From: Candidatus Omnitrophota bacterium
GTDB lineage: Bacteria > Omnitrophota > Omnitrophia > Omnitrophales > Aquincolibacteriaceae
Reading direction: 5' to 3'
Length of the DNA: 64,000 bases
Assembly: GCA_030698625.1 (NCBI GenBank)
Contig: JAUYMS010000040.1
Span: forward strand, 21,499 to 85,498
Part shown: in pieces, positions 6,520-60,488 of the stretch
Layout of the letters: each line of letters begins with the position of its first letter
How positions within the stretch are numbered: the first letter of the stretch is position 1
Notes under the pieces: model-generated
What the model saw: only the letters and a program-made list of their open reading frames with translations
What the model was told of the DNA's origin: nothing
Database searches by the model: none
Translations under genes and position numbers: made by a program

Positions 6520-6532
6520 TTCGAAAGGATGT

Positions 6533-11784: not shown

Positions 11785-13500
11785 GTGCCGGAGAGGGGCT
11801 ATCGTCCTATAATGAACAGAAAAACCACCCAACTGCGCCAGCTCTTTTCGCGGGGCGGCATCATCCGCGTTATGGGAGCGCACGACGGTTTAGGTGCGCG
11901 CCTCATCGAGCGCAATGGTTTCGATGCCGTCTGGTCGAGCGGACTGGAAATCTCCACAGCGCATGCACTCCCCGACGCCAATCTCCTAACCATGACTGAG
12001 AATCTGGCTGCAGCACAAGGCATTAACGATGCCACCCATCTACCCGTCATCTGCGATTGCGATACCGGATACGGCAACTCAACCAATGTCATGCACATGG
12101 TTAAGAAATACGAAGCTGCCGGACTGGCGGCCGTCGTGATTGAAGATAAACGTTTTCCTAAAATAAACAGCTTTATTCCCGGCAGACAGGAACTTGCAGG
12201 GATCCATGAATTCGCAGGCAAACTTCAGGCGGCAAAGAGCGTTCAAAATGATCCTGATTTTATGGTCATTGCGCGCACCGAAGCGCTCATCGCCGGATGG
12301 GGAATGGATGAGGCATTGCGGCGCGCGATTGCCTACGAGCAGGCGGGCGCGGATGCGATTGTCATTCATTCCCGGTCCCGCATGCCGGACGAAGTCTATG
12401 AATTTGCTTCTAAGTGGAAGGGGTCGGTTCCCTTGATCGCCATCCCCACGATGTATCCCGATGTGACCGCAGCTCAACTTGAAGCCGCCGGTTACGGCAT
12501 GGTCATCTATGCCAATCACGGTCTACGGGCATCGATACGCGCCATGGATGAAGTCATGCGACTGATTGCGGAAACGGGATCTTTGACCGCCGTTGAGGGA
12601 AAGATCGCCGGGATGGATGAGGTTTTTGAAATTCAGCGTATGACTGCCATGCGGGAAGACGAGAAGAGATTTACGGGAAGGGAGTCGTTAAATGCTGTGA
12701 TCCCGGCGGCCGGCAATCACGCCCTCGAATCCGATTTGGGAGATGTCCTCGGAGACAAACCCGTTTGCATGCTGAATGTCGGCGCCAAAACACTCATTGA
12801 CCGGCAGACGGATCTATTGCGCTCGGCGGGAGTCAGCGACATTTGGATCGTGGGCGGTCATCAGCATGACAAAATCCGCTCCGATGGTTCTCATATCATT
12901 CACAATCCCCGATACGACACTTGTCATAATGCCTACTCACTGATGCAGGCCGAAGCGCATATGGGGACACGATGCGTCGTGGCTTATTCGGATATCATTT
13001 ATGATCGCCAAATTCTTAATCATCTGCTCATGAGTCCGCATGACATTACACTCGTTATGGATCGTGCGTATCAGACGCTTCCGGCGCGAGATAAAAAACA
13101 TGATTTGGTGATCGCAGAAAATTCATCCGTGGGGTTTGAGTCGCGGCGGCTCGACGCCAGTCTCTTCCTTCCGGTGCGCCGTATCGGAAAGGAACTCGAC
13201 AAGGCTCGGGCCAATTATGAATTCATCGGACTGGCCTTATTTCAGGGGCAGGGCATTCATGAACTGCGAGCGGCCTGGCGTGACGCACTATCGAAATTCC
13301 GGGACAAGCAGTTTAACGAGGCCCCCTCGGCCGAAAAGGCTAGTTTGCCGGACCTGATTCAGTATCTCATTGAACGCGGTGCCGGCGTGTATGGCATGCA
13401 GATTGAGCACGGCTGGTCCGAGATTCAATCGAAAGAGGACTACCGCCGCGTAGACTCTTATTTTCAGCCGTCTTCGGCTCAGCCGTCTCAAGTCGTATGA
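11785..13500 (+). CDS. pepM: Phosphoenolpyruvate phosphomutase fused to a C-terminal nucleotidyltransferase domain
   Basis: PepM signature VVIEDKRFPKINSF (EDKxxxxxNS) and the isocitrate-lyase/PEP-mutase fold motifs in aa 1-290. Aa ~300-571 has VIPAAG...GDKP...VGG, an NTP-transferase-like fold. An alternative start is the ATG at 11812 (MNRKTTQLRQLF). Confidence 0.85.
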   Translation: MPERGYRPIMNRKTTQLRQLFSRGGIIRVMGAHDGLGARLIERNGFDAVWSSGLEISTAHALPDANLLTMTENLAAAQGINDATHLPVICDCDTGYGNSTNVMHMVKKYEAAGLAAVVIEDKRFPKINSFIPGRQELAGIHEFAGKLQAAKSVQNDPDFMVIARTEALIAGWGMDEALRRAIAYEQAGADAIVIHSRSRMPDEVYEFASKWKGSVPLIAIPTMYPDVTAAQLEAAGYGMVIYANHGLRASIRAMDEVMRLIAETGSLTAVEGKIAGMDEVFEIQRMTAMREDEKRFTGRESLNAVIPAAGNHALESDLGDVLGDKPVCMLNVGAKTLIDRQTDLLRSAGVSDIWIVGGHQHDKIRSDGSHIIHNPRYDTCHNAYSLMQAEAHMGTRCVVAYSDIIYDRQILNHLLMSPHDITLVMDRAYQTLPARDKKHDLVIAENSSVGFESRRLDASLFLPVRRIGKELDKARANYEFIGLALFQGQGIHELRAAWRDALSKFRDKQFNEAPSAEKASLPDLIQYLIERGAGVYGMQIEHGWSEIQSKEDYRRVDSYFQPSSAQPSQVV

Positions 13501-14606
13501 TCGAATCCGGCACGTTCGTGCAACAACTCAAGAATGAAGGTTTTCGTTTTTTTACGGGCGTGCCTTGTTCCTTCTTTCAATCTGCGATCAACGCTGTGGT
13601 TGACGACAAGTCTTTGAAGTATGTCACCGTACCAAACGAAGGCGCGGCCTTGGCTGCGGCATCGGGCGCCATACTTGCCGGAGAACCCGCTGTAGTCCTA
13701 ATTCAGAACTCCGGTTTTGGCAATTTGATCAACCCGCTGACATCGCTGAATATGATTTATGGGCTGGGTGTTCTTATATTTATCAGCGGGCGCGCCTATG
13801 GCGTCGCCGATGAACCGCAACACGAAATTATCGGTAAGTCTATGGCAGGAATGCTCGACGCGATGGGTGTTGCTTTCGAAGACCTGCCTTCCGAGCCCGA
13901 GGCGCTACGGTCTGCTTTGGGACGTGCGCACCTGTGGATCCGGAACGAAAAGCAGCCCTTTGTTTTCTTTGTGCGCAAGGACACCCTTTTGGAATACGCC
14001 GGGCCATCCGGCAAAGACGTCTACCCGCTAAAACGAATTGATGCCATAAAGATCATTGCGGAATCGATAGGGGACAATGACTATGTCGTTGCGACCACGG
14101 GCAAGCCGTCACGCGAACTCTTCAAGATCAAGGATAGGGTCCGCAATTTTTACATGCAGGGTTCCATGGGGCATGCGGCGGCAATTGGTTTGGGGGCTGC
14201 ACTCAGTCGTCCGGATGAGAGGATTATCGTCCTGGACGGTGACGGCGCCATTTTGATGCACCTCGGTATCCTCTCTTCGATTGGGCATTACCGGCCAAAG
14301 AACTTCTATCATATTGTTCTCGACAACGAGGCTTACGAATCAACGGGCGGCCAAGATACGACCTCTGCCTCCTCCGATTTGTGCGCTGTGGCGCATGCAT
14401 GCGGCTATGTTTGGACTAAAGAAACGTCTACAGCAGATGAGTTAAAGCGCAGCCTTGAAGAGCTCAAAGGAATTGAAGGGCCGTGTTTTTTAAGAGTTAA
14501 GATCAACCGTATTGCTACACCCGATGTCCCGCGCATATCGGGAAAGCACAGTTCACGTGATATCGCCTCGCATTTCTCCGAAGAACTGGCCAGGGGGCGC
14601 ACTTGA
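13497..14606 (+). CDS. ppd: Phosphonopyruvate decarboxylase (ThDP-dependent)
   Basis: 369 aa. ThDP motif LDGDGAILMHLG...NEAYESTGGQ. ATGA overlap with pepM. pepM-ppd synteny is canonical. Confidence 0.8.
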   Translation: MIESGTFVQQLKNEGFRFFTGVPCSFFQSAINAVVDDKSLKYVTVPNEGAALAAASGAILAGEPAVVLIQNSGFGNLINPLTSLNMIYGLGVLIFISGRAYGVADEPQHEIIGKSMAGMLDAMGVAFEDLPSEPEALRSALGRAHLWIRNEKQPFVFFVRKDTLLEYAGPSGKDVYPLKRIDAIKIIAESIGDNDYVVATTGKPSRELFKIKDRVRNFYMQGSMGHAAAIGLGAALSRPDERIIVLDGDGAILMHLGILSSIGHYRPKNFYHIVLDNEAYESTGGQDTTSASSDLCAVAHACGYVWTKETSTADELKRSLEELKGIEGPCFLRVKINRIATPDVPRISGKHSSRDIASHFSEELARGRT

Positions 14607-15739
14607 GTTGCGCTTACTGGAATCCTACGCGCCGTCTCATAGAAGAAGGTGCCCTCGACAAACTGGCTGAAGAACTATCAGCTTCCGGTGCCGCAAAGGT
14701 ATTGGTCGTGCTCGGCGAAAAATCATTTCGTAAGTCGATTCGCTACACAAAACTGCGCGATACGTTGGAACACTTTTCCCTTGTCGAATCTGAGCCCGTC
14801 GTCAAAGACCCTTCACTGGTATTCGCACAGTCATTTGCCGAAAAGTATCGCGGCAAGGCTATTGATAGCGTCGTGGCAATTGGCGGGGGCAGCGTCATGG
14901 ATATGGCGAAACTGACGGCGCTCCTGCTCAATCAGCCGGATGACACGTGGAACACTTTTTGGCGTGATCCGGTGGTACCGATTGAGTTTCCAAATGCGTC
15001 ACTCCCGCTCGTCGCGGTTCCTACAACGGCGGGCACGGGGAGCGAAGTCACTCAATACGCCTCTTTTGAGGATCACCAGCATCAAAAGATGAGCTTTGCT
15101 CACCCTTATCTTTTCCCAAAGCTTGCGCTCGTGGATCCTGAATTGGCCGTTTCGATGCCGCCTGCGATTACGGCCTCGACAGGATTTGACGCACTATCGC
15201 AAGCGATCGAGGCCTATTGGTCCATCCATCATATGCCTTCCTCAGACACCCATGCACTGCGGGCTATCCCGTTGGTTTTAGAACAGCTTCAGCGTGCCGT
15301 CGAAAAACCTGCCGATAGGGATGCTCGTTTCGCCATGGCAATTGCAGGCAACGAGGGGGGCCTAGCCATCGCACAGACACGGACGACAGCAGTTCATTCG
15401 GTTTCTTATCCCATGACGACGATATTTCACGTGCCGCATGGCCACGCTTGCGCCTTGACGCTTGCCTCATTCGTACGGTTCAACCAGGATGCGATTGAGC
15501 ACGAGCGAGCCGCCGCACTTTGGAGAGCTCTCGGGGCGGAGAACGCTGAAATGGCCGCTAAGCACATTGAGGGCCTTATGGATAATGTCGGACTCGAGCG
15601 CCGACTGAGTCAAGTAGGCATTGATGAGGAAGGACTGGAGTCCATTGTAAAATATGGGTTTAGACCGGATCGTGTAAAGAATAACCCAAGAGAACTCAAT
15701 GCCTCTCAATTAAGAACAATGCTTGTGGAAATTCTTTGA
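14603..15739 (+). CDS. Iron-containing alcohol dehydrogenase (phosphonoacetaldehyde reductase candidate, FomC/PhpC-like)
   Basis: Fe-ADH family: GGGSVMDMAKL. Positioned directly after ppd. TTG start overlaps the ppd stop. Confidence 0.7.
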   Translation: MSCAYWNPTRRLIEEGALDKLAEELSASGAAKVLVVLGEKSFRKSIRYTKLRDTLEHFSLVESEPVVKDPSLVFAQSFAEKYRGKAIDSVVAIGGGSVMDMAKLTALLLNQPDDTWNTFWRDPVVPIEFPNASLPLVAVPTTAGTGSEVTQYASFEDHQHQKMSFAHPYLFPKLALVDPELAVSMPPAITASTGFDALSQAIEAYWSIHHMPSSDTHALRAIPLVLEQLQRAVEKPADRDARFAMAIAGNEGGLAIAQTRTTAVHSVSYPMTTIFHVPHGHACALTLASFVRFNQDAIEHERAAALWRALGAENAEMAAKHIEGLMDNVGLERRLSQVGIDEEGLESIVKYGFRPDRVKNNPRELNASQLRTMLVEIL

Positions 15740-15838: not shown

Positions 15839-17377
15839 ATGACTAAGAGCGCTGAAAAACCTACGATTTGCCTGATTATACCCCCGTCGATTTTTCTGTT
15901 GGACGAGCGGGTCTTCATTAGCGTCGGCATTCTCAAGATTGCGGCGGTTCTAGAGAGGGAACATTACCCTGTGGACGTGCTAGACCTCTCGGGCGTTGAA
16001 AACTATGAAGCCGTTATTGAAGACCACATTAATAACAGCCCGGCCCGAATCTTTGGCGTTACGTCGACAACCCCGCAAATGCCGGCTACCGCGAGAATCG
16101 CAAGGCTAATTCGTAAGCTCGTTCCTGAAGGCAGATTGATTCTTGGCGGACCTCACGCAACGTTGGTCCATTCTGCTTTCAAGAAGGAAAGCATCGAAGG
16201 GAAAAAGGGGCGGGGAACAGTTGCTATGGATAGCATTCTAGCACTCTATGACGTTGCCGTAGTCGGTGACGGTGAAGACGCCATCTTTGAAGCCATTGCT
16301 GAAAATCCGTCGCAGATCGTGGACGCAAATGACCGCACATCCAGGCTTTTTTTGACTAACCAAAGATATGACAGCCTTCCGTTTCCCGCGCGCCATCTCA
16401 TCGATATCGACAGCTATCATTATTTTATAGAGGGACATCGCACGACAAGCCTTATTGCTCAGCTTGGCTGCCCCTTTGAATGCGGTTTCTGCGGGGGACG
16501 GCAATCGCCGATGTTGAGAAATATCCGTATGCGCAGTATGGACAGCATCATTGAAGAGATGCGGCACATCCATGTCACCTACGGGCATACCGGATTCATG
16601 TTTCACGATGACGAACTTAATGTGAATCCGAAAATGATCGAGCTTATGACCAAAATCGTTGACCTGCAAAAGGAACTCGGGGTTGATTTTCGGCTTCGCG
16701 GGTTTGTTAAAGCGGAACTCTTCAATGACCGGCAGGCGGAAGTGATGATGAAGGCCGGTTTCCGCTGGCTCCTGACCGGTTTTGAATCGGGAGACCGCAG
16801 GATCTTGACGAATATTAACAAAAAGGCGACCCGTGAAGACAATTCGCGCGCCGTACAGATCGCCAAAAAACAGGGCCTTAAAGTTAAAGCGCTTATGTCT
16901 ATCGGGCATCCCGGCGAAAGCGAAGAGTCCGTCATGGCCACACGCGACTGGCTACTTGAAGCAGAACCGGAGGATTTTGACGTCACCATTATTACCACTT
17001 ATCCGGGCACGCCTTATTATGATTTTGCCGTACCGCATCCGGAAAAACATGGGATCTGGGTCTACACCTACAAGAAAACAGGGGACAAGCTCTACAGCCT
17101 TGAAGTCGATTACAATGAAGTAGCCGATTACTACAAAGGAGATCCTGACGGCGGCTATAAATCGTATGTGTATACCGACCACTTGAGTCAGAATGACCTG
17201 GTCGATTTGCGTGATTTTGTAGAAAGAGATGTTCGGGATCGCCTTGAAATTCCTTTCTACGCTGGTTCGCCCAGCATCCGCTATGAGCACTCTATGGGCC
17301 AATTCGGCAAACAGCTCCCGCCCAATATCCTAAGGCGTTCCGGCGGGGGTGCCCATGAAAAGCTGCCCGTCAGTTAG
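15839..17377 (+). CDS. Cobalamin-binding radical SAM protein (512 aa; Fom3-like methyltransferase candidate)
   Basis: N-terminal B12-binding-like region (FGVTSTTP...ILGGPHA), then GCPFECGFCGG (CxxxCxxC). Size matches class B radical-SAM methyltransferases. Confidence 0.8.
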   Translation: MTKSAEKPTICLIIPPSIFLLDERVFISVGILKIAAVLEREHYPVDVLDLSGVENYEAVIEDHINNSPARIFGVTSTTPQMPATARIARLIRKLVPEGRLILGGPHATLVHSAFKKESIEGKKGRGTVAMDSILALYDVAVVGDGEDAIFEAIAENPSQIVDANDRTSRLFLTNQRYDSLPFPARHLIDIDSYHYFIEGHRTTSLIAQLGCPFECGFCGGRQSPMLRNIRMRSMDSIIEEMRHIHVTYGHTGFMFHDDELNVNPKMIELMTKIVDLQKELGVDFRLRGFVKAELFNDRQAEVMMKAGFRWLLTGFESGDRRILTNINKKATREDNSRAVQIAKKQGLKVKALMSIGHPGESEESVMATRDWLLEAEPEDFDVTIITTYPGTPYYDFAVPHPEKHGIWVYTYKKTGDKLYSLEVDYNEVADYYKGDPDGGYKSYVYTDHLSQNDLVDLRDFVERDVRDRLEIPFYAGSPSIRYEHSMGQFGKQLPPNILRRSGGGAHEKLPVS

Positions 17378-17388
17378 AATCTGCGACC

Positions 17389-18345
17389 GTGTTCCTGATT
17401 GATTCTTACATCCGAGACCGCCTTGTAAGAAAGGTGCGTGCAAAGAAAGAAAAAATCGCCCGTTTGGGAACTCCCTATACAGAGAATCCCAAAGTTTCAG
17501 CGGTTGTCACCTCGTACAATCACAGGGCCAACATCAAGCCGATTCTCGAAGCTTACAGAGCCGCAGACCTTGAGGAATTGATCGTTTGCGAAGATGGTTC
17601 CCTCGACGGCTCCCGCGACGAATGGCTCAAGCATCTGCTTAGGCCGAATGATTTCCTGATTGTCTCCAACGAACTGAATGAACTTCGGATCTACAATCGC
17701 GCCATCAGTCTCGCTCGCGGAGAAATAGTGATCGTCAATCAGGACGACGATATTCCCCCCCAAGACGCAAGTTGGATTCGTGATGCGGTACGCCTTTTCG
17801 ACAAGTATCCGCGGTTGGCGATTTTGGGTGCGTTGGAGGGCGCTCAACAGCCAATCTTTACCCTCGACAATTACTACCGCGTCAAATCTCTGGCTGAGCG
17901 TCTCGGGCAGGCAAAATTCAGAATACCCCGTAAAGAGATACAACATCGCGATCCCGAACTCGGAGTCGGTTTTATGTTCATCGATGTCGTCAATAACGGG
18001 CCGCTGATCTTCCGCAGACAGGCTTATCTCGAACTCGGAGGCCTGGATACGTCTCGTAGTAAGGCAGGGGAATCCATGATGTTTATGGATTACGATCTTT
18101 GTTATCGTGCTTGGCTTGCCGGTTGGCAGGTGGGGCTCTATGAGCACGCTCCGTTTGTGACCAATGCGGGCCAGCGAGCCTCGGTTCTTTTTGCCCATGG
18201 GGATCGTAAGAAGCGCGGGAAGGAAACTCGCGAATACCTGAATCAAGCTTATTCACACGTCTATGAGGATGTCGGGAGCCGGGCACGTCGGTTGAACGAG
18301 GAGTTTCTCACCTTGGCTGATCACAAAGAAACGGTGAATAGTTGA
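17389..18345 (+). CDS. GT-A fold glycosyltransferase (GT2-like)
   Basis: VVTSYNH...CEDGSLDGS...NQDDD. Paralog of the ORF at 28811. GTG start. Confidence 0.6.
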   Translation: MFLIDSYIRDRLVRKVRAKKEKIARLGTPYTENPKVSAVVTSYNHRANIKPILEAYRAADLEELIVCEDGSLDGSRDEWLKHLLRPNDFLIVSNELNELRIYNRAISLARGEIVIVNQDDDIPPQDASWIRDAVRLFDKYPRLAILGALEGAQQPIFTLDNYYRVKSLAERLGQAKFRIPRKEIQHRDPELGVGFMFIDVVNNGPLIFRRQAYLELGGLDTSRSKAGESMMFMDYDLCYRAWLAGWQVGLYEHAPFVTNAGQRASVLFAHGDRKKRGKETREYLNQAYSHVYEDVGSRARRLNEEFLTLADHKETVNS

Positions 18346-19691
18346 AACCTACGGTTCAGAGGAATGTCTCGGTTGTTGGGCTCGGAAAGCTCGGGTTTCC
18401 GTTCTCTGTTTGTCTTGCCAATAAGGGATTTAACGTCTGGGCCGTCGACAACGATGCCGTAAAATTACGCACCCTCAAGGCTGGGCATTCGATGCAGTAT
18501 GAACCGGGCTTGCGGGCGTTATGGCACAAGTCACGCAAGCGGGTGCACCTCACCGCAGATTACGCGGAAGCGATAGCGAATACTAATATTACATTCGTGG
18601 TAGTTCCTACCCCGAGCAAGAAGGACGGCAGCTTTACATCCCGTTATGTTCTGGACGCCTGCCGCAAAATCGGAAAAGTCCTGAAGGATAAAAAACGTTT
18701 TCATTTAGTCGTCATCACAAGCACCGTGGTTCCGGGCACGGTGGACACGAAAATCCGGTCTGCTCTCGAGGCCGAATCCCGCAAGAAGTGCGGTGCCGGA
18801 TTCGGCCTTTGCTACAATCCGGAGTTTATCGCATTAGGCAGCGTCATCCACGACCTGTACCACCCCGATTTCGTTCTCATCGGCGAGTCTGACAAAAAGT
18901 CGGGGGACCTTCTGTCTACCGTGTACGCGAAATTCTGCGGGAAGCATGTCCCGCTTGCCAGAATGAACTTCAGTAATGCGGAGCTGACAAAACTGACGCT
19001 GAATGCCTTCGTCACAATGAAGATATCCTACGCCAATATGATTAAACAGTTCTGCGAGGGACTTCCCGGCGGAAATGTGGATGTGGTGACCGGTGCCCTC
19101 GGACTCGACAGGCGCATCGGCTCCCGCTACTTGAAGGGCGGCCTCGGCTACGGGGGCCCATGCTTCCCAAGAGACAATCTGGCATTACTGCATACGGCCC
19201 ATAAGATGTCTGTGAGGGGGAGTCTTCCGGAGGCCACGCACGAATTCAACAAACGTGAGATTCACCGCCTAGCCAAGCTTGTGATCGAAAAGCTGCCGCG
19301 AGGAGGCAAGGTCGGAATTCTGGGTCTTTCTTACAAGCCGAACACGAATGTTGCCGATGAAGCCCAGGGCGTTTTGCTGGCACGTTTTCTGGCGCGCAAA
19401 CGTATTCCCGTAATTGTGTATGACCCCGTAGCCACCGATAACGCCCGTAAATTACTCACATCAAGAGTTGAATTTGCCTCATCAAAGGCCGAATGCTTGT
19501 CGCAGGCAGATATCGCTGTCATCACGACTCCGTGGGAAAGATTCAAGCGCTTGAGGGGCACGGACTTTAAGCGATCAAAGCGCAAGCCGATCGTGATTGA
19601 TTGCTGGCGTATTCTGGACACCGCCAAGCTCCGGAACCATGTGGAGTACTTGCCGCTCGGCGTCGGGCGAGAAATAACGGTTCACACATAG
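18342..19691 (+). CDS. NDP-sugar 6-dehydrogenase (UDP-glucose/GDP-mannose dehydrogenase family)
   Basis: VVGLGKLG Rossmann motif. Catalytic-Cys motif GYGGPCFPRDN (cf. GGSCFPKD). 449 aa. Confidence 0.8.
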   Translation: MKPTVQRNVSVVGLGKLGFPFSVCLANKGFNVWAVDNDAVKLRTLKAGHSMQYEPGLRALWHKSRKRVHLTADYAEAIANTNITFVVVPTPSKKDGSFTSRYVLDACRKIGKVLKDKKRFHLVVITSTVVPGTVDTKIRSALEAESRKKCGAGFGLCYNPEFIALGSVIHDLYHPDFVLIGESDKKSGDLLSTVYAKFCGKHVPLARMNFSNAELTKLTLNAFVTMKISYANMIKQFCEGLPGGNVDVVTGALGLDRRIGSRYLKGGLGYGGPCFPRDNLALLHTAHKMSVRGSLPEATHEFNKREIHRLAKLVIEKLPRGGKVGILGLSYKPNTNVADEAQGVLLARFLARKRIPVIVYDPVATDNARKLLTSRVEFASSKAECLSQADIAVITTPWERFKRLRGTDFKRSKRKPIVIDCWRILDTAKLRNHVEYLPLGVGREITVHT

Positions 19692-19692
19692 A

Positions 19693-20427
19693 ATGAACGC
19701 ACATGATCCGCTTTACATTTTCTTTCATATTCACAAAACAGCGGGCACAACGTTTGCGATGCATTTGCAGGAAAATCTGGCCGGGGATGAACGCCTAGCT
19801 GTTTATCTGAAATCGGTTGAAGTGGATGCCTTTAATGATTCGCTTGCGCAAATGCCACCGGCTCAAAAGGGTAGACTAAAAGTAATTTACGGGCATCGGG
19901 TCTACGACGGTATTCATAAACATTTTAACCGCGAGGCCCGGTATTTCACTTTTCTCCGCGACCCCGTCGCCCGCACCCTTTCACACTACAATGGGCAGAT
20001 GCAGTTACTGGAGAAACGACACTATAAGAAGACCCCGGGCTTACCCTTCCGGCCCCAACCTTTTAAAGAATGGCTCTTCTCGGACACATCGCAGTGGAAT
20101 GCAATGGCCCAGGAACTCATCCGAGTCTTTTTACAAACGCATGTAGTCCGTGAAGAAATGAACGAGACACATCTCAATACGGCAAAAGGAGTCCTCGACC
20201 GGTTCTTTTTTGTGGGAGCTACGGAGCATTACGAGGAAGATGCGTCTTATTTGTATAATCTGATGGGAATCACCAAGTTTGTGCCTGATTGCCGAGTCAC
20301 CCTAAAATCGTACTACGAGGGGGATCCGGAGGAGGCCAGGCAATGGATACGGCAGAAAGCCCCCCTAGATGTCGCCTTATACTCCCACGCCCTCCGGCTC
20401 AGGCGCAGGAGCCAAGTCACAACTTGA
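19693..20427 (+). CDS. Sulfotransferase (PAPS-dependent)
   Basis: 5'-PSB HIHKTAGTT and 3'-PB RDPVARTLSHY. Paralog of the ORF at 43439. Confidence 0.7.
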   Translation: MNAHDPLYIFFHIHKTAGTTFAMHLQENLAGDERLAVYLKSVEVDAFNDSLAQMPPAQKGRLKVIYGHRVYDGIHKHFNREARYFTFLRDPVARTLSHYNGQMQLLEKRHYKKTPGLPFRPQPFKEWLFSDTSQWNAMAQELIRVFLQTHVVREEMNETHLNTAKGVLDRFFFVGATEHYEEDASYLYNLMGITKFVPDCRVTLKSYYEGDPEEARQWIRQKAPLDVALYSHALRLRRRSQVTT

Positions 20428-21059: not shown

Positions 21060-21085
21060 GGGCTAAGGGGTCGGGCTAAGGGGTC
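21060..21085. repeat. 13-bp perfect tandem duplication GGGCTAAGGGGTC x2 abutting the inverted REP
   Basis: gggctaaggggtc gggctaaggggtc, read directly. The second copy runs into the REP stem. Confidence 0.5.
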
Positions 21086-21106
21086 AAGTCTCGACTTGAC
21101 TACATG
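21080..21106 (-). repeat. REP-like hairpin element, copy 3 (inverted orientation)
   Basis: ggggtcaagtctcgacttgactacatg is the reverse complement of the 6493 copy. It lies 70 nt upstream of the RAYT start. Confidence 0.6.
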
Positions 21107-21177
21107 TTGTTTCCTGCGTATCATGATATCTTCGTAACATCATTCCACAACGTAACATAACCTCTATTCACCAGCTC

Positions 21178-22164
21178 ATGGCTCGTCCACTCCGTATTGA
21201 ATTCGAAAATGCCTGGTATCACGTTATGAACCGGGGCCGGAATCACATGGACATCTTCCGGGGTGAGCACGATTACCGCGTATTTCTTGAGATTCTGACG
21301 GAGGCATGCGGCCTCTTTAACGTACAGATTGCGTCTTACTGCTTGATGTCCAATCATTACCATCTGCTGATTCATACCCCTGAGGCAAATCTTTCGCGTT
21401 TTATGCGGCATATCGACGGGGTCTATACGCAGAAATACAACCGGTCTTATCAAAAAGACGGATCTTTGTTTAAGGGGCGTTACCGTGCCGTTGTATTACA
21501 GGTTGAAAGCTATCTGTTGCGCGTCATGCGTTACATCCATCTGAATCCGGTGCAGGCGCGCATTGTCCATGATCCTACAGATTATCCCTGGTCGAGTCAT
21601 CGCGACTATATTTCAGTCAACGGCCACCCGAGTTGGCTGCTTGTAGGTTTTATCCTTAATCAATTCTCTTCGCAATCGCACCTAGCCGCAGAAGCTTACA
21701 ATCAATTCATTACGGCAGGCATTGACAGTGAGACAGAGAAATTTTACTCGCAGGTAAAACTAAAACCAATTTATGCGGATGCCACGCGAACGGCGGAAAT
21801 TAAAGAAAAGTATCTCGCTCCAAATACCCGTGAGGTGGCTGAAATCCCTGAGAGACGCAAGATCCGCGGAGAGCAAATGGCGAGCCATATCCTGCGGGCA
21901 GTTTCACAAAACTTCAGCGTAGCAGCTGCCGGCATCAAGTCATCACGGCGAGGTAAGGAAAACCTGCCGCGTCAGATGGCGATCGCCCTTGCAAGGGAGC
22001 TTTCAGGAATGACGCATCGCCAAATCGCCGATTTTTTTAATATTAACTCCTACAAAACCGTCAATAAACATTGCGATCGCTTTGCGAGCAAGATTCGCGT
22101 CAGCGACGAACTGAGTGAACAGTACAAGCAACTGAGATCAACATGTCTTCAAGTCGAGACTTGA
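21178..22164 (+). CDS. IS200/IS605-like Y1 (HuH) transposase, REP-associated (RAYT-type), with C-terminal DnaA-C-like HTH
   Basis: HuH motif SNHYHLLIH, then YIHLNPV...YPWSS (catalytic Y region). The C-terminal ~100 aa (MAIALARELSGMTHRQIADFFN...NKHCDRF) resembles the DnaA C-terminal DNA-binding domain. Confidence 0.75.
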   Translation: MARPLRIEFENAWYHVMNRGRNHMDIFRGEHDYRVFLEILTEACGLFNVQIASYCLMSNHYHLLIHTPEANLSRFMRHIDGVYTQKYNRSYQKDGSLFKGRYRAVVLQVESYLLRVMRYIHLNPVQARIVHDPTDYPWSSHRDYISVNGHPSWLLVGFILNQFSSQSHLAAEAYNQFITAGIDSETEKFYSQVKLKPIYADATRTAEIKEKYLAPNTREVAEIPERRKIRGEQMASHILRAVSQNFSVAAAGIKSSRRGKENLPRQMAIALARELSGMTHRQIADFFNINSYKTVNKHCDRFASKIRVSDELSEQYKQLRSTCLQVET

Positions 22165-22168
22165 CCCC
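22142..22168 (+). repeat. REP-like hairpin element, copy 4
   Basis: catgtcttcaagtcgagacttgacccc. It overlaps the last codons and stop of the RAYT. Confidence 0.6.
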
Positions 22169-22918
22169 ATGGACCTAACGCGGGTAAAGAAGGGGATTAA
22201 TGATATTGTTTTTCGGTGGCTGATACGGCCGCATGTCAAGAGGTTGGTGAAGTACAGTCTCAAGGATCAGCGGAAGCACTTCCTTAAGGACAGGAAGATG
22301 CATGAGCTGCTCAAGACCCGGCTTGAGTCAATTGACCTTGAGGAGCAGCTCTTCAAGGACGCCAAGCCTTGCGGCAAGCGATTTGAACTGCTTTCGCGTG
22401 CCGTGGAGCAGGCCAAACGCTTTGACGGCGGGGAGCTCTGGCTTGAGTTCGGGGTCGAGGCTGGCGCATCCATTAATCACATTGCAGGCGAAGTGCAATC
22501 GACGGTCTACGGATTTGACACCTTCACGGGTCTTCCTGAGGCATGGAAGACAGGCCTCTATCATCATGCGCGAAAGGGTAAGCGCAGTCTTGATGCCGTA
22601 CTGCCGAAGGTGGCGTCGAACGTTGAGTTGATTCCGGGGCTGTTTGAAGACACCTTACAGCCGTTCTTAGAAAAGCATGCGGAGCCCGTCGCTTTTGTCC
22701 ATATCGATTGTGACTTATACAGTTCAACAAAAACAGTGTTTCGTCAATTAAAGCTGCAAGTCGGGAGCGTGATCGCCTTCGATGAGTATTACAACTACCC
22801 AAATTGGAGAGAGGGGGAATACAAAGCCTTCCATGAGTTCTTGGCCGAAAGCCAGATGACAGCGAAGTGCCTCGGTTTTTGTCCGCGATCGGGACAGGCG
22901 GCGTTTATCCTATGCTAA
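22169..22918 (+). CDS. TylF/MycF-family SAM O-methyltransferase
   Basis: LEFGVEAG...YGFDTFTGLPE...VHIDCDLYSST...FDEY. First of a tandem pair. Confidence 0.7.
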   Translation: MDLTRVKKGINDIVFRWLIRPHVKRLVKYSLKDQRKHFLKDRKMHELLKTRLESIDLEEQLFKDAKPCGKRFELLSRAVEQAKRFDGGELWLEFGVEAGASINHIAGEVQSTVYGFDTFTGLPEAWKTGLYHHARKGKRSLDAVLPKVASNVELIPGLFEDTLQPFLEKHAEPVAFVHIDCDLYSSTKTVFRQLKLQVGSVIAFDEYYNYPNWREGEYKAFHEFLAESQMTAKCLGFCPRSGQAAFILC

Positions 22919-23676
22919 GTAAAATTTTACCGAGTTCAGTGAAACGATGGTTTCATGATTTTGTGTTCAGGATCGTCCGTTCCAATTCAAGGCGTATCGT
23001 CAAGTATATCCTTGAGGACCGCCACATCCAGGAGCAGCTCAAGGCCCGACTGGAATCCATTGAGCGCGAGGATGAATTGTTTGGTGATGGGGTAATTTTC
23101 AAGAACCGCACAGGCCTTATTGAGCATGCGCTGAAACAAGTACCCGAGAGATTACGAAACGGGCTTTACCTGGAGTTTGGTGTAGCCAACGGAAAATCCG
23201 TAAACCTCATCGCGAGGAATATTCAGACGAGGGTCTATGGTTTTGATTCCTTTGAGGGACTTCCCGAGAAGTGGGTCACCGGCAAGTACAGCAGTGCGGT
23301 CCAGGGAAAACACAACCGCAACAAAACATTGCCTAAAGTGGAGCTCAATGTCGAACTCGTTCGCGGATGGTTCCACGACACTGTCCCCGGTTTCTTGCGC
23401 GACCACCCGGGTCCTGTGGCGTTTGTGCATGTCGATAGCGACCTTTATGAATCAGCGCGATACATTTTCTCACAACTAAAATTAGAAAACGAGACCGTGA
23501 TCGTTTTCGACGAGTACTTCAACTTCCCGGCCTGGAAAGAGGGCGAATATAAGGCCTTTCAAGATTTTCTGACGGCACGCGGAGCAACCGCTCGATGCAT
23601 TGGCTACTGTCCGCGAAGTCAGCAGGCGGCTTTTGTGCTCTCACTTAATTCCGAAGGAGCTCCGGCTTTTGCATAG
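22912..23676 (+). CDS. TylF/MycF-family SAM O-methyltransferase (tandem paralog)
   Basis: LEFGVANG...YGFDSFEGLPE...VHVDSDLYES...FDEY. ATG at 22912 overlaps the upstream stop (ATGCTAA). Confidence 0.7.
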   Translation: MLSKILPSSVKRWFHDFVFRIVRSNSRRIVKYILEDRHIQEQLKARLESIEREDELFGDGVIFKNRTGLIEHALKQVPERLRNGLYLEFGVANGKSVNLIARNIQTRVYGFDSFEGLPEKWVTGKYSSAVQGKHNRNKTLPKVELNVELVRGWFHDTVPGFLRDHPGPVAFVHVDSDLYESARYIFSQLKLENETVIVFDEYFNFPAWKEGEYKAFQDFLTARGATARCIGYCPRSQQAAFVLSLNSEGAPAFA

Positions 23677-31845: not shown

Positions 31846-33543
31846 ATGATAGAAGTAACCACCAGAGAGTTGTCAAAGCAGCCCTCGACTGAAAAGCCCA
31901 ATGCCGTGATCTGGTACCTGGCAGTCCGGCCGTCTATAATCGACAGTTTGCGAGGGCTCTATGAGCACTTCAATAACCAGTACAAGTACCCGGTCATCAT
32001 CTTCACTTTCGGGCAGCCCTACTCAAAGGCCTTCATTAGCAAAATTCATCGAACCATTGACCCCGCGATTCGCTTTGTCAAAGTAAAGCCGCGCATTCCG
32101 GCGAATGTGCCTGAAAGCGAGCTCTTCTATAACCGCAAAGACATTCGCTATGTGCGCAAGAATTTCCCCGAAACCCGTATCGGATATCTCCATATGTGCC
32201 ACTTTATGGCAGGCGGTTTTCTCGACACAAAAGAGTTAGATGGCTACGACTGGGGCATGCGCCTCGATGACGACTCCTTCTTTTTGGAAGACATCTCCTT
32301 TGATTTCTTCCGCGTCATGCGCGATGGGCGATATCTCTATGGCACGGGGTATGAAAATGACCGCGAGCTTGCGCCGAAGCGAAGCGTCAATGATTGCACG
32401 AGCGGACTCTGGGAATTTACGGATGCCTATATGAAGAAAAACAGTATTGAGTCTGACTGGATTCAGCGTCACAGGCGCTCAGACGGAAGCTTTCACTATG
32501 TAGTCGGTGCAGGAAACATGACGCTGTGGAATCTTAACCTGTTCCGCAGCCCAGAGTGGCGTAGTTGGTGGAAGACGCTGCTCGAATCCGGCGGAATCTA
32601 TAAGTATCGTTGGGGCGATCAAGAAATCCACCGCCTCTTTATGCAAATGCAGTTCAAAGAGTCCGAGTGGAAATCATTCGCCCCCGAGCTCCTTGATTGC
32701 CGCTACAAGCATGAGTCGGTTCCGGAAAAACGCAAGTACTGGCACGGCGGGTTGGGGATGTGGCACACAAAACCTCATCGCTCTGCCGCACTCGCAGAGC
32801 ATCTGCGCGGCTACATGCGCAACCTTGCCCGGGCGTTATCCCCGAGAAAGTTCCTCGCTAGCCTTCGCCCGAAGCAACAGATGAACCTCACCGAAATGGG
32901 CAGACGCTTTCATGCGGAAAAGGCAGACCCGACAAGGCAGTATTTTGGCAAGTGTCTTACCGAGATTTACGAGCCCTATTTGACGGCATTTTGCGGGAAA
33001 CCCATTAAGTTGCTTGAGATTGGCGTGGCACGTGGGAAATCGCTGAGGATGTGGGCGAAATATTTCCCGCAGGCAAAGATCTTCGGGCTCGACATTAACC
33101 CTATAACTAGGAAATACGAGCGCGGAAGAATTCGGATTATTATCGGGTCCCAAAACGATCCGAACGTACTAGATGGAGTGAGCCGGGAAGCGGGCACACT
33201 TGACATCATCATCGACGACGGCAGTCACGTCAACACCCACATCCTTCAGTCCTTTGAAACCCTGTTCCCAAAACTGAATTCCGGCGGCGTTTATATCATC
33301 GAGGCTCTCCACTGTTCGTATCAAGATCTCGAAACAGCCGGGGGCATCGGGGTGCGTGAGGGATCGCGTCAAGGCTTGGGGTGGAGCGGCATGCATCTCA
33401 ATCCCGAGTCGGAATCTTTCACTAATCACCGCGAAGACATGGATCGTTTCTTTCTTGAGCGCATCAAACAACTGGATCACAAAGAAGGCAGTATTCAAAG
33501 CATCCACTTCTGGTCACGGACCTGTATCATCACAAAGGTATAA
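31846..33543 (+). CDS. Fusion: GT15 (Kre2/Mnt1-type alpha-1,2-mannosyltransferase) domain + CmcI/Methyltransf_24-like SAM methyltransferase
   Basis: The N-terminus aligns by eye to yeast Mnt1: YKYPVIIF..., YLHMCHFMAGGF..DGYDWGMRLDDDSFF (cf. YRHMCRFQSGFF..EYDWYWRVEPD) and NLNLFRSPEWRSW...GGIYKYRWGDQEIH (cf. NLNLWRSPAYREY..GGFFYERWGDAPVH). The C-terminus has LLEIGVARGKS...IIDDGSH...GGVYIIE. Confidence 0.7.
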   Translation: MIEVTTRELSKQPSTEKPNAVIWYLAVRPSIIDSLRGLYEHFNNQYKYPVIIFTFGQPYSKAFISKIHRTIDPAIRFVKVKPRIPANVPESELFYNRKDIRYVRKNFPETRIGYLHMCHFMAGGFLDTKELDGYDWGMRLDDDSFFLEDISFDFFRVMRDGRYLYGTGYENDRELAPKRSVNDCTSGLWEFTDAYMKKNSIESDWIQRHRRSDGSFHYVVGAGNMTLWNLNLFRSPEWRSWWKTLLESGGIYKYRWGDQEIHRLFMQMQFKESEWKSFAPELLDCRYKHESVPEKRKYWHGGLGMWHTKPHRSAALAEHLRGYMRNLARALSPRKFLASLRPKQQMNLTEMGRRFHAEKADPTRQYFGKCLTEIYEPYLTAFCGKPIKLLEIGVARGKSLRMWAKYFPQAKIFGLDINPITRKYERGRIRIIIGSQNDPNVLDGVSREAGTLDIIIDDGSHVNTHILQSFETLFPKLNSGGVYIIEALHCSYQDLETAGGIGVREGSRQGLGWSGMHLNPESESFTNHREDMDRFFLERIKQLDHKEGSIQSIHFWSRTCIITKV

Positions 33544-33546: not shown

Positions 33547-34284
33547 ATGGCAAACTCCCTACTCACAATTATCGGGTTAGGCGGTGTTGAACGATGGGCG
33601 AGAAGCAGGCTGCACAACCATCGTATCCATAAGTACTTTGCCGCAAAAAGACCCGGGGACAATAACTCCCAGTTTGCGATGCAGGAGCTCCTTTTCCACG
33701 CTGCCGACGTGCTGGAGAAGCATCGGATTCCTTATTGGCTGGACTGCGGAACGCTCCTCGGGGCCTGGCGTCAGGGAAATAATCTTCCTCAAGACGCCGA
33801 TGTGGATATTGGAATTCTGGAAGAGGACGCTGACCGCGTTGTCGACCACCTCAAAGGCGATTTGAAACCGCCCTATGAAATTGTGGCCGAAGGCCTTTGC
33901 CCGCGTGTCTATAACCGTCTCATTAAGTTCCCTAAGAAAACCCGGCACTACCTGCCGAAAATGAAGTGGCCCATCCACGTTGATTTACGAATCTTCAAAC
34001 TCGAAGACGGTTTTGTTAAATGCAGCGATAGAATGGGTTACGACCAGAAGCGAAAATATCAATCCGGGGCGATCACCCCTGAGGGGTGGTCCATGGGAAA
34101 ACCGAAACCGGTGCCGGCAGAATGGGTCTTCCCACTTGCTAAATGCAGGGTTCGCGGCAGGGAATTTTCGGCTCCTCGAGAGACTGAGACATATCTCGAA
34201 TTCAAATACGGATGCATCGGTGAAATCGGCAAAGAATGCGTGTGGAATCCCGACACCCAAAAACTGGAGAAGATAAAGCAATGA
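33547..34284 (+). CDS. LicD-family phosphotransferase (phosphocholine/phosphonate headgroup transferase-like)
   Basis: YWLDCGTLLGAWRQG followed by DADVDIGI, the LicD/fukutin nucleotidyltransferase-fold motifs. 245 aa. Confidence 0.8.
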   Translation: MANSLLTIIGLGGVERWARSRLHNHRIHKYFAAKRPGDNNSQFAMQELLFHAADVLEKHRIPYWLDCGTLLGAWRQGNNLPQDADVDIGILEEDADRVVDHLKGDLKPPYEIVAEGLCPRVYNRLIKFPKKTRHYLPKMKWPIHVDLRIFKLEDGFVKCSDRMGYDQKRKYQSGAITPEGWSMGKPKPVPAEWVFPLAKCRVRGREFSAPRETETYLEFKYGCIGEIGKECVWNPDTQKLEKIKQ

Positions 34285-60478: not shown

Positions 60479-60488
60479 GAACGTGACG

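Follow-up and report, generated by a model that had tools for sequence, protein, structure and literature searches.

A divergent LicD/FKRP-family gene in an Omnitrophota glycan locus and its proposed role in attaching a CMP-activated phosphonate

The gene at positions 33547 to 34284 of the window (the whole 64-kb stretch of Candidatus Omnitrophota DNA that was analysed, part of a 135-kb contig) had been read, in the original prediction, as a LicD-family transferase that likely couples a phosphonate to a glycan. The features of the window that bear on this gene are the following.

7637 to 9622, + strand: cobalamin-dependent radical SAM C-methyltransferase of the TokK/CysS class
9625 to 10062, + strand: stand-alone Fom1-type cytidylyltransferase (CyTase), 145 aa, PF01467
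10059 to 11684, - strand: B12-binding radical SAM protein
11785 to 13500, + strand: PEP mutase (PepM) with a C-terminal fusion to a MobA-like NTP-transferase (PF12804, PntC-type)
13497 to 14606, + strand: phosphonopyruvate decarboxylase (Ppd)
14603 to 15739, + strand: Fe-dependent alcohol dehydrogenase (Fe-ADH)
21073 to 22175, + strand: IS200-like element
31846 to 33543, + strand: GT15-like glycosyltransferase fused to Methyltransf_24
33547 to 34284, + strand: LicD/FKRP-family phosphotransferase, 245 aa
34236 to 35900, + strand: nucleotide-diphospho-sugar transferase-like domain (weak match) fused to Methyltransf_24
57863 to 59077, + strand: Wzy_C/O-antigen ligase-family membrane protein
59621 to 61838, + strand: Wzm (ABC-2 permease) and Wzt (ATPase with a Wzt_C carbohydrate-binding domain)

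All genes from 11785 to 51617 lie on the + strand, as expected of the co-directional array first described, but a 750-bp gap and the IS200-like element (~21073-22175) interrupt the array and stand between the phosphonate block and the part that contains LicD. Its Y1 transposase + DnaA_C gene (21178-22164) lies between inverted repeats of 37 nt that contain hairpins. The distance from pepM, originally given as 17 kb, is 20.0 kb when measured from the end of pepM (13500) to the start of LicD, with about 12 genes and the element in between; 16.2 kb is obtained only from 17377, where the last gene of the pepM-adjacent block ends. LicD itself is embedded in a glycosyltransferase/methyltransferase array through tight junctions, starting after a 3-nt gap behind the GT15-like fusion and ending in an overlap with the gene downstream, whose internal ATG (34281) shares the LicD stop codon as ATGA. 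A comparison of the window with other loci revealed no conserved sub-module around LicD.

The ORF runs from ATG to stop and contains the two motifs exactly as they had been quoted, at Y63-WLDCGTLLGA-73 and D83-A-D85-V-D87. The family assignment likewise stands: Pfam LicD (PF04991) matches far beyond chance expectation and above its cutoff (E 5.4e-13; 50 bits against 22.6), over residues 57-104 only, the remaining domain being shown by alignment and fold. An exhaustive HMMER search returned 3875 homologs at E<=1e-3, the record of an identical protein reads 'LicD family protein [Candidatus Omnitrophota bacterium]', and the nearest relative in a set of 1.8 billion representative proteins shares 40% identity with the window protein. 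The PDB match is FKRP (phmmer, E 1.2e-7), and a Foldseek search of the PDB with an AF2 model of moderate confidence (pLDDT 73.4, pTM 0.70) returned FKRP for all of the top 13 matches (E 7e-10 to 8e-8), with ~200-220 aligned columns (~218 at E 7e-10) and a query-normalised TM of ~0.5, making it the best match in structure as well. The NCBIfam Mf1 model matches weakly, at 32.5 bits against an equivalog cutoff of 225 bits. Judged by HMM match, motifs and modelled fold, the gene is a real ORF of the LicD/FKRP family, and its sequence marks it as a near-orphan, divergent protein of the LicD/fukutin type.

The near-invariant columns of the family are all retained (W64, G68, L71, G72, R75, P81, D83, D85, D87, D146, P196, L197, P210, Y221, and G222), and T69 and L70 likewise occupy invariant or near-invariant columns of the 38- and 59-sequence alignments. 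They belong to an N-terminal W-L-x-x-G-T-L-L-G-x-x-R block followed by D-x-D-x-D, which aligns to the FKRP motif, a mid-domain acidic residue (h-x-D-h-F; D146), and a C-terminal F-P-L...P...Y-L..Y-G block that includes Y216 and L217. The residues D83, D85, and D87 form a putative metal-binding DxDxD, with D146 as the presumed third acidic residue. The description of these motifs as classic holds for GTLLG and DxDxD but not for P-W-D, which reads PQD here, Gln82 replacing Trp. Since this Trp is conserved yet not universal (W in 227 and H in 37 of the 275 homologs in which the motif could be located), Gln82 does not exclude membership in the LicD family.

The phosphonate module opens with PepM, in which EDKRFPKINS corresponds to the EDKxxxxxNS signature of genuine PEP mutase; TIGR02320 (PEP_mutase) scores 314 bits, just below its cutoff of 319.55, and the fused PF12804 domain is recognized at E 3.7e-8. 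Ppd exceeds the TIGR03297 cutoff (360.8 against 312.5 bits). The best NCBIfam match of the Fe-ADH is the phosphonate-type Fe-ADH, at 238 bits under an equivalog cutoff of 423.7 (TIGR03405), and the enzyme is proposed to be a phosphonoacetaldehyde reductase that would yield 2-hydroxyethylphosphonate (HEP). No AEP transaminase (PF00266, Aminotran_5) was found in the ORFs of at least 150 aa or in the gaps of the 64-kb window; the single aminotransferase of the window, a sugar aminotransferase of the DegT type, is partial and sits at the extreme right end, and none lies in or near the module. The presence of the Fe-ADH and the absence of an AEP transaminase point to a HEP-type rather than an AEP-type module. 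Of the two donors originally considered, CMP-AEP is for this reason unlikely, and CMP-HEP, as such or methylated, is likely.

The main new evidence for transfer of a phosphonate by the LicD is the CyTase gene at 9625-10062 (PF01467, E 5.4e-16), which had been overlooked in the original prediction and begins 3 nt past the stop of the preceding radical SAM gene. The Fom1 CyTase domain (PDB 5x3d) matches it at E 1.7e-54 with 81/131 identical positions (62%), and matches to TagD (1e-7) and ECT (1e-15) are weaker. The Fom1 domain has been reported to convert HEP and CTP to CMP-HEP (PMC6697681), and the window enzyme is proposed to make the same product. It and the PepM-fused PF12804 domain are the only two nucleotidyltransferases in the 64 kb. 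With these genes, a complete route to a CMP-activated phosphonate appears to be encoded in the window.

The radical SAM protein at 7637-9622, translationally coupled to the CyTase, resembles TokK (PDB 7kdx, E 1.1e-116) and CysS (5e-58), and homologs of ~30% identity adjoin an NTase and pepM in six marine loci; tentatively, it may methylate the phosphonate. The B12-binding radical SAM protein at 10059-11684, divergent and upstream of pepM, has the Sden_1168 P-methyltransferase family as its best match (NF038361, 296.7 bits against a cutoff of 575), and at one other locus (L098) the PepM fusion is directly preceded by a similar ORF. A role as a Fom3-like CMP-HEP methylase was considered for the radical SAM gene at 15839-17377 and dismissed, since over 100 homologs share 62-75% identity with it and the two homolog contexts examined (L115 and L116) are pepM-free glycan clusters. 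A GT2 gene at 17389 follows this intervening gene directly and is close to the phosphonate module, and a protein without a family match (5500-6354) is encoded near the module as well.

Toward the right of the window, Wzm (ABC2_membrane, E 5.7e-15), Wzt (ABC_tran and Wzt_C, E 1.1e-21), and the Wzy_C-family protein were assigned with Pfam. Wzm and Wzt suggest export of a glycan that is fully assembled in the cytoplasm, and a soluble LicD and CMP-HEP would therefore meet the glycan there. Among the ORFs of at least 150 aa and the inter-gene gaps of the window, LicD is the only phosphotransferase-type enzyme recognized. Neither a CDP-alcohol phosphotransferase (PF01066) nor a second LicD was found in the 64 kb, and the same holds for choline kinase, licA/licB/licC, TarI/J, and TagD-type genes, in a search for other CDP-alcohol pathways that covered 64 kb of the 135-kb contig. 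Pfam scans of all window ORFs of at least 150 aa gave no domain matching FomD (CMP hydrolase) or the HppE epoxidase, so the locus is not a fosfomycin cluster.

To place the gene among its relatives, genomes were scanned with a 7-sequence LicD alignment, the 38-sequence alignment being too diverse. In species-representative genomes, PepM lies within 10 kb of 23 of the 80 top-ranking LicD relatives (a raw count), usually at 0.4-4 kb; restricted to loci flanked by 5 kb or more on each side, the count is 19/51. The PepM-linked loci represent about eight separate lineages, or nine if a soda-lake bacterium (L001) is counted. A Fom1-type CyTase occurs in 21 of these 23 loci (44-60% identity to that of the window), and the best CyTase matches (L058, L014, and L021) are Fe-ADH (HEP-type) loci. 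LicD, a CyTase-PepM fusion, Ppd, and Fe-ADH form contiguous same-strand operons in L021, L058, and L001, and L014 holds all of them in a convergent arrangement; the four together are thus a recurrent minimal operon in at least three lineages (four with L014). Other relatives of the window LicD stand beside inositol-phosphate synthase or CDP-OH transferases, or in eukaryotic DNA, and the 3.5-kb contig of the nearest homolog (P0003, 40% identity) holds no pepM.

The view from the PepM side is different, with the reservation that the two sets of loci were selected in different ways: neither LicD, sought within 10 kb, nor a Fom1-type CyTase was found at any of the 22 nearest PepM relatives (0/22 each). 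The closest PepM-NTase + Ppd + Fe-ADH modules are 45-61% identical to that of the window, and the loci without LicD carry NTases and lie in glycan (nonulosonic acid) clusters. LicD is thus not obligatory for this type of module, and another kind of transferase must exist; no unannotated protein or unrecognized transferase common to the window and these PepM-side loci was found. Because the Fom1-type CyTase is present in the window and in PepM-linked LicD loci and absent from the LicD-less ones, the window is placed with the LicD group. Co-occurrence of this CyTase with LicD among pepM loci predicts that the two are a donor-transferase pair.

The phylogeny that had been proposed as a check gave no placement in a pepM-specific clade. 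In the neighbor-joining (NJ) tree of the full data, the window LicD stands next to a 14-member Cytophagales clade, all pepM-linked, but its grouping with pepM-linked LicDs is recovered in 19 of 200 bootstrap replicates, and within a star-like topology the protein forms a deep orphan branch without supported placement. The HMM of unlinked LicDs scores it best (116.6 bits), followed by those of the non-Cytophagales pepM-linked LicDs (109.0) and the Cytophagales clade (64.3). A non-Trp residue at position 82 and YG[YC][IL]G are common to the window LicD and the Cytophagales clade; as a marker of phosphonate-linked LicDs this combination was discarded, because some of the other contigs that carry it are eukaryote-like and lack pepM and others are too short for a verdict. 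On these data the window LicD does not appear orthologous to any pepM-linked LicD found.

Several known systems resemble parts of the locus. FKRP and fukutin, the mammalian ribitol-phosphate transferases that use CDP-ribitol (PDB 6kak-6kan), share with the window LicD the nucleotidyltransferase-type catalytic fold, GxLLGxxR, the DxDxD metal site, and the C-terminal block; the window protein differs in comprising the catalytic domain only (no stem domain), in its ~21% identity, in the Trp-to-Gln change, and in its donor, presumably a CMP-phosphonate instead of CDP-ribitol. The phosphocholine transferases LicD, LicD2, and Mf1 (CDP-choline donors) belong to the same Pfam family and share the scheme in which a cytidylyl-activated group is passed on to a glycan, whereas the window LicD falls far under the Mf1 cutoff and has no licA, licB, or licC in the window. 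The published phosphonyl-tailoring (Pnt) pathway (PMC6697681) likewise combines a Ppm-PF12804 fusion with a second, PF01467-type CyTase and with a LicD at a glycan locus, although its examples make CMP-AEP and the window locus is HEP-type, with LicD 20 kb away and not adjacent. Rice et al. (2019) only noted 'LicD-like phosphotransferases' near Ppm-fused PntC cytidylyltransferases (PMC6697681).

The early fosfomycin pathway of Streptomyces (Fom1 CyTase-PepM, Fom2, FomC, Fom3) is approached through the 62%-identical CyTase, PepM, Ppd, Fe-ADH, and the cobalamin radical SAM C-methylase coupled to the CyTase; here, however, the CyTase is a separate gene, PepM is fused to PF12804 instead, FomD- and HppE-type proteins are lacking from the Pfam scans, and the setting is a polysaccharide locus and not an antibiotic cluster. 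The compact loci of a Marinimicrobia bacterium (L021), a Bacteroidetes bacterium (L058), Akkermansia (L014), and the soda-lake bacterium (L001) encode the same five functions as the window, with CyTase identities of 52-60% and PepM/Ppd identities of 33-40%. Their genes are contiguous with CyTase fused to PepM, whereas in the window LicD is distant and the CyTase stands alone, and their LicDs retain the P-W-D Trp and are ~26-30% identical to that of the window.

Our preferred reading, to which we assign a probability of roughly 0.6, is that 33547-34284 encodes a cytoplasmic phosphotransferase of the LicD/FKRP fold that decorates an O-antigen-like polysaccharide with HEP or methylated HEP. Since the same glycan cluster would also make and CMP-activate HEP, LicD is the best candidate for attaching it. 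Sequence shows what family and fold each enzyme has and which genes co-occur; from this we infer all of the reactions, what serves as donor and as acceptor, and that LicD and the phosphonate genes, 20 kb apart, work together. PepM (11785) would convert PEP to phosphonopyruvate, Ppd (13497) would decarboxylate this to phosphonoacetaldehyde, and the Fe-ADH (14603) would reduce the aldehyde to HEP, which would be converted to CMP-HEP by the Fom1-type CyTase (9625), the PepM-fused PntC-type domain, or both. LicD, via a metal bound at DxDxD, would then release CMP from CMP-HEP and place the phosphonyl group on a hydroxyl of a sugar in the undecaprenyl-linked glycan; once finished, the glycan would leave through Wzm/Wzt and be ligated by the protein of the Wzy_C family. 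The coupling role first proposed for the gene is accordingly the best-supported explanation, given the full CMP-phosphonate route, the sole phosphotransferase recognized in the window, and compact operons in unrelated bacteria; the 20 kb with its IS element, the 0/22 PepM-side loci with LicD, and the missing pepM-clade placement count against it. Headgroup transfer by LicD in phosphonate systems, which had been presented as given, is a published hypothesis and not an established reaction (PMC6697681); our literature search turned up neither an assay of any LicD with a phosphonate donor nor a biochemical demonstration of an enzyme attaching a phosphonate to a glycan (PMC6697681, PMC8942020).

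The LicD could instead transfer phosphocholine or glycerol-, ribitol-, or inositol-phosphate, with CDP-donor genes outside the window. Large glycan loci collect many tailoring genes, so the pepM of the array could be there by coincidence, and the 20 kb and IS element between the two genes fit such an arrangement. CDP-choline or CDP-ribitol is the donor of every characterized LicD/FKRP enzyme (FKRP structures 6kam; NCBIfam names), and both the best HMM score, that of the non-pepM-linked LicDs, and the relatives found with inositol-phosphate synthase and CDP-OH transferases point the same way. We nevertheless consider this rather unlikely, as the 64 kb yielded no choline kinase, LicC, TarI/J, or TagD-type gene, the two nucleotidyltransferases of the window are the PepM-fused PF12804 domain and a CyTase far closer to Fom1 (1.7e-54) than to TagD (1e-7), and the conserved Trp of P-W-D, which may bear on donor choice, is lost from this LicD. 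We regard as improbable a further arrangement in which a different, unrecognized transferase uses the CMP-phosphonate, or the phosphonate ends on a lipid or small molecule, and LicD is an unrelated tailoring enzyme. The 22 closest PepM-module loci, where NTases and nonulosonic acid clusters occur without LicD, favor it, and the unannotated proteins near the module (e.g., 5500-6354) or the GT2 at 17389 might supply candidates. However, those LicD-less loci have none of the unannotated window proteins and also lack the Fom1-type CyTase that the window and the LicD-containing pepM loci possess, and the window holds no PF01066 enzyme as an alternative.

An extension of the preferred reading, phosphonate attachment by LicD, is highly speculative: early fosfomycin-type chemistry may have been reused for the cell surface, with the Fom1-type CyTase making CMP-HEP, the TokK/CysS-class radical SAM enzyme C-methylating the CMP-bound phosphonate once or more (to 2-hydroxypropylphosphonate or a larger alkyl), and the orphan PQD LicD attaching the product to the O-antigen-like glycan, where it might cap the non-reducing end and be read by the C-terminal domain of Wzt. 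If this were true, the head group would be one not yet described for phosphonoglycans. Cell-surface decoration is the presumed purpose of about half of the phosphonate pathways in bacteria, and polysaccharide-bound HEP has been described as a major component of marine dissolved organic phosphorus (PMC6697681, PMC8942020). That LicD proteins attach phosphonates is an already known idea, supported here and not proven, and the Omnitrophota LicD is a divergent example rather than a new principle. The recurrent minimal operon and the co-occurrence of CyTase and LicD offer concrete, testable material.

The ATG-initiated open reading frame at 33547–34284 (+) encodes a protein of 245 aa, and its assignment to the LicD family is confirmed by a Pfam match, by the conserved columns that it keeps, and by a predicted fold of the type seen in FKRP, the mammalian ribitol-phosphate transferase of the LicD/fukutin family. 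The two strings on which the original prediction relied are present (YWLDCGTLLGA at residues 63–73, DADVD at 83–87), the database record of the identical protein is titled "LicD family protein", PF04991 (LicD) matches with an E-value of 5.4e-13 (50 bits; cutoff 22.6), and the top PDB sequence match is human FKRP (E 1.2e-7). Because the Pfam span is limited to residues 57–104, the remainder was examined by alignment and predicted structure. In two family alignments (38 and 59 sequences), the window protein keeps all invariant or near-invariant columns, in the N-terminal part (W64, G68, L71, G72, R75, P81, D83, D85, and D87), at mid-domain (D146), and toward the C-terminus (P196, L197, P210, Y216, L217, Y221, and G222). 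The AlphaFold2 model (pLDDT 73.4, pTM 0.70) retrieves FKRP catalytic domains as its top 13 Foldseek matches in the PDB (E 7e-10 to 8e-8, ~200–220 aligned columns), followed by the nucleotidyltransferases LnuA and ANT(2''). A DxDxD metal site and a predicted catalytic-domain fold are common to the window LicD and FKRP. In the P-W-D motif, Gln replaces the Trp found in 227 of 275 homologs with a locatable motif, and inspection of the N-terminus revealed no obvious hydrophobic segment.

The surroundings of this gene were mapped by Pfam and NCBIfam scans of open reading frames of at least 150 aa and then of the inter-gene gaps, giving the following features, assigned by Pfam/NCBIfam unless stated:

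6512–7633 (+), GDP-mannose 4,6-dehydratase
7637–9622 (+), cobalamin radical SAM enzyme
9625–10062 (+), 145-aa cytidylyltransferase (Pfam PF01467)
10059–11684 (-), second B12 radical SAM protein
11785–13500 (+), PEP mutase (PepM or Ppm) fused to a PF12804 NTP-transferase (EDKRFPKINS motif)
13497–14606 (+), phosphonopyruvate decarboxylase, Ppd (TIGR03297, 360.8 bits, exceeding the cutoff)
14603–15739 (+), Fe-dependent alcohol dehydrogenase, Fe-ADH (top model, phosphonate-type Fe-ADH)
15839–17377 (+), third B12 radical SAM protein
17389–20427 (+), GT2, UDP-glucose dehydrogenase, and sulfotransferase
21178–22164 (+), IS200-like Y1 transposase gene, preceded by a 750-bp gap
22169–51617 (+), tightly packed array of ~26 genes including LicD
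57863–59077 (+), Wzy_C/O-antigen-ligase protein
59621–61838 (+), Wzm and Wzt (the latter with a Wzt_C domain)

The large array encodes glycosyltransferases (many fused to methyltransferases), epimerase/reductases, and sulfotransferases. The LicD start lies 3 nt past the stop of a GT15-like/methyltransferase gene, and the LicD stop shares the sequence ATGA with an in-frame ATG of the gene that follows. That upstream neighbor (31846–33543, +) joins a GT15 domain (Glycolipid 2-alpha-mannosyltransferase, PF01793, E 6e-27), a family best known from fungi, to Methyltransf_24; further glycosyltransferase–methyltransferase fusions start at 25480, 34236, and 49210. The locus unites four sulfotransferase genes (19693, 42453, 43439, and 61840, +), about 12 methyltransferase domains, and the phosphonate module, implying a glycan that is extensively sulfated, methylated, and phosphonylated. 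At the left edge, a 1524-aa open reading frame with no Pfam match (55–4629, +) adjoins a divergent 2OG-Fe(II) oxygenase gene (4613–5479).

LicD had been placed 17 kb from pepM in the same co-directional array; the actual distance is 20 kb, and the one-strand gene order holds but is broken by a mobile element. The latter, an IS200-like unit at 21073–22175, comprises a single Y1 transposase + DnaA_C HTH gene between 37-nt inverted repeats (21073–21109 and 22139–22175; 86% complementary, with a palindromic hairpin in each), the right arm running into the 5' end of the following gene (22169). The element seems to have inserted into, and divided, a glycan/phosphonate array that was formerly continuous. 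Directly past it lie two TylF-like (Methyltransf_24) methyltransferases (22169–23676, +), homologs of which, at 34–44% identity, adjoin pepM in seven marine metagenome loci (L102, L105, L106, L108, L109, L112, and L114); phosphonate-associated genes therefore probably extend beyond the element.

The nature of the activated donor is suggested by the small cytidylyltransferase (PF01467, E 5.4e-16). Its match to PDB 5x3d (E 1.7e-54; 81/131 residues identical, 62%) is far stronger than those to ethanolamine-phosphate cytidylyltransferase (1e-15) or to TagD, a glycerol-3-phosphate cytidylyltransferase (1e-7). The 160-residue 5x3d chain, deposited as "phosphoenolpyruvate phosphomutase", corresponds to the cytidylyltransferase domain of Fom1, the cytidylyltransferase–PepM fusion of the Streptomyces fosfomycin pathway, which transfers CMP from CTP onto 2-hydroxyethylphosphonate (HEP) to give CMP-HEP (Rice et al., 2019; PMC6697681). 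Judged by sequence, the window thus encodes PepM, Ppd, and Fe-ADH together with a cytidylyltransferase closely related to Fom1, the only enzyme for which CMP-HEP formation is reported. Within the same scans (Pfam/NCBIfam, open reading frames of at least 150 aa plus gaps), no transaminase for the amino analogue AEP was found in the window; its sole aminotransferase, of the DegT sugar type, is partial and lies at the right edge. Given this gene set, the LicD donor is most likely CMP-HEP rather than CMP-AEP.

The association was then viewed across the LicD family, using the window phosphonate proteins as queries against 10-kb flanks of the 80 best LicD relatives in species-representative genomes (L-numbers denote fetched loci and P-numbers LicD homologs). 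PepM lies within 10 kb of LicD in 23 of the 80 loci, typically at 0.4–4 kb, and is accompanied by Ppd in 22; where at least 5 kb of flank is available on both sides, 19 of 51 are linked. Only some 5% of bacterial genomes carry Ppm (PMC8942020); rough reasoning from that prevalence puts a linkage of 29% well above chance placement. The 23 loci span about eight separate lineages: a 14-member Cytophagales clade, Marinimicrobia, Campylobacterales, Akkermansia, two Bacteroidales groups, Methanobrevibacter, and one unclassified bacterium. P0002, the sole distant LicD relative returned by a word-indexed search, is also linked, its gene lying directly upstream of CyTase (cytidylyltransferase)–PepM, Ppd, NTP-transferase, and Fe-ADH.

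When the window CyTase was searched against all fetched loci, 21 of the 23 linked loci proved to carry a Fom1-type CyTase (44–60% identity) fused to the PepM N-terminus, the exceptions being L041 (33%) and L006 (none). Loci with LicD but no pepM have CyTases of only 28–35% identity, except L003 (50%), a truncated copy of the linked locus L001. The top matches, in L058 (60%), L014 (58%), and L021 (56%), all come from loci with Fe-ADH. The genes for LicD, CyTase-PepM, Ppd, and Fe-ADH form an uninterrupted same-strand run in L021 (9344–14123), L058 (6424–10750), and L001 (10001–14686), and are convergently arranged in L014; by predicted function, operons of the L021/L058/L001 type hold little besides HEP synthesis, HEP activation, and LicD. 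A compact AEP-type cassette occurs in Ekhidna (L019, 8957–15087) and 13 related Cytophagales loci, comprising a Stealth-family protein, a 198-aa LicD with a P-H-D variant, PF12804 NTase, CyTase-PepM, Ppd, and a class-V aminotransferase; this LicD clade is 14/14 pepM-linked.

From the PepM side the picture differs. A metagenome scan with the window PepM fusion gave 22 loci (45–65% identity), all of which lack both a Fom1-type CyTase and a LicD, the latter sought down to E≤10 with an HMM that the window LicD matches at 3e-60. This PepM type thus does not always have LicD as a partner, and another transferase must exist for these loci. The CyTase contrast (21/23 against 0/22) is suggestive rather than a controlled statistic, as the two sets were picked by different criteria. 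The window mixes traits of both groups, its PepM resembling the LicD-less one and its CyTase and LicD the other. The best-sampled locus of the scan, L095 (8445–20801), holds the closest full relative of the PepM-NTase/Ppd/Fe-ADH module (59% identity), in the order separate PF12804 NTase, uncharacterised 250-aa protein, PepM-NTase, Ppd, and Fe-ADH; the nonulosonic-acid pathway downstream (DegT, GT28/GNAT, NeuB, and CMP-sugar synthetase) suggests that HEP is attached to a sugar of the pseudaminic or legionaminic type. Marine loci L104–L114 show a recurrent order of TokK-like radical SAM enzyme, PF12804 NTase, TylF-like methyltransferase, PepM, short Ppd, second NTase, and sulfotransferase, with neither LicD nor Fom1-type CyTase.

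The window LicD itself is a deep orphan branch within a very large family. HMMER, run exhaustively over 1.84 billion representative proteins, returned 3875 homologs at E≤1e-3 and nothing but the protein itself below 1e-30; the nearest representative protein is P0003 (40% identity), and 185,579 species-representative genomes gave no match above about 30% identity over the LicD domain. A neighbor-joining tree of 98 LicD domains was star-like; with the full data, the window LicD fell inside an 18-sequence split with only P0003, L004, P0045, P0087, P0023, and the 14 Cytophagales LicDs (14/14 pepM-linked). It has two derived traits in common with them, a P-W-D motif that has lost its Trp and a YG[YC][IL]G motif at the C-terminus. 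Against this, the grouping with the Cytophagales-containing split recurred in only 19/200 bootstraps, and group HMMs scored the window LicD best with unlinked LicDs (116.6 bits), then with non-Cytophagales linked LicDs (109.0) and lowest with the Cytophagales clade (64.3), so that this grouping was not upheld. Other bearers of the non-Trp/YG[YC][IL]G signature come either from pepM-free contigs of eukaryotic appearance or from contigs whose length does not allow a judgment. Non-Trp homologs in eukaryote-like DNA include those of L088, beside Ank/PARP/FYVE genes, and L091, with a YGYIG motif, sparse coding, a kinetoplastid-type zinc-finger gene, and two LicD paralogs. Linkage to pepM is polyphyletic within the family, and donor specificity is therefore not readable from the tree.

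Three B12 radical SAM genes lie within 10 kb of pepM in the window, a hint that the phosphonate is alkylated or P-methylated. The enzyme at 7637–9622, coupled to the CyTase, matches TokK (E 1.1e-116) and CysS (5e-58), which sequentially methylate sp3 carbons; its homologs (~30% identity) stand beside NTase and pepM in six marine loci, and it may methylate the phosphonate. This gene and 10059–11684 (-), whose top match is the Sden_1168 P-methyltransferase family (297 bits, under cutoff), flank the CyTase. The third, at 15839–17377 right after Fe-ADH, was considered as Fom3-like and rejected, since its family is wide and occurs in glycan clusters lacking pepM: more than 100 homologs (62–75% identity, unusually high conservation for a glycan-tailoring enzyme) occur in Omnitrophota, Elusimicrobia, and CPR bacteria, and the two contexts examined (L115 and L116) are cell-envelope glycan clusters in which GT2, Wzy_C, and CDP-OH phosphotransferase genes are present and pepM is absent within 10 kb.

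Taken together, we favor a route, at a probability of roughly 0.6 for the whole, in which PepM would convert PEP to phosphonopyruvate, Ppd would yield phosphonoacetaldehyde, Fe-ADH would reduce this to HEP, and the Fom1-type CyTase, possibly with the PepM-fused PntC-type domain, would form CMP-HEP. LicD, acting in concert with the module 20 kb away, would, by analogy with FKRP, use its DxDxD metal site to move the phosphonyl group onto a hydroxyl of a sugar, CMP being the leaving group. The Wzm/Wzt system implies a glycan completed in the cytoplasm, where a soluble LicD could act; Wzm/Wzt would export it and the Wzy_C-family protein would ligate it. In this scheme the enzyme families, their folds, and their co-occurrence come from the sequence data, and the catalytic steps, the acceptor, and the connection across 20 kb are inferred. 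On a less probable reading, LicD would draw on a conventional CDP-alcohol whose synthesis is encoded elsewhere in the genome; the inspected sequence covers 64 of the 135 kb of the contig. Still more doubtful is attachment of the phosphonate by another, unrecognised enzyme, with LicD in a different role, for which the LicD-less pepM loci offer a precedent.

Elements of the favored CMP-HEP route have been described. The idea that LicD-like phosphotransferases use CMP-phosphonates was published on the strength of gene neighborhoods (PMC6697681), HEP-type neighborhoods make up ~8.5% of ppm clusters, HEP–glycan conjugates have been isolated, and PntC pairs, one fused to Ppm, are known (PMC8942020); a literature search found no published assay of a LicD with a phosphonate donor. 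The idea that LicD uses a CMP-phosphonate is thus already known, and the window gene is a divergent further example. The present analysis adds the Fom1-type CyTase, a five-function HEP cassette that recurs, and the co-occurrence of CyTase with LicD, which together make the hypothesis directly testable.
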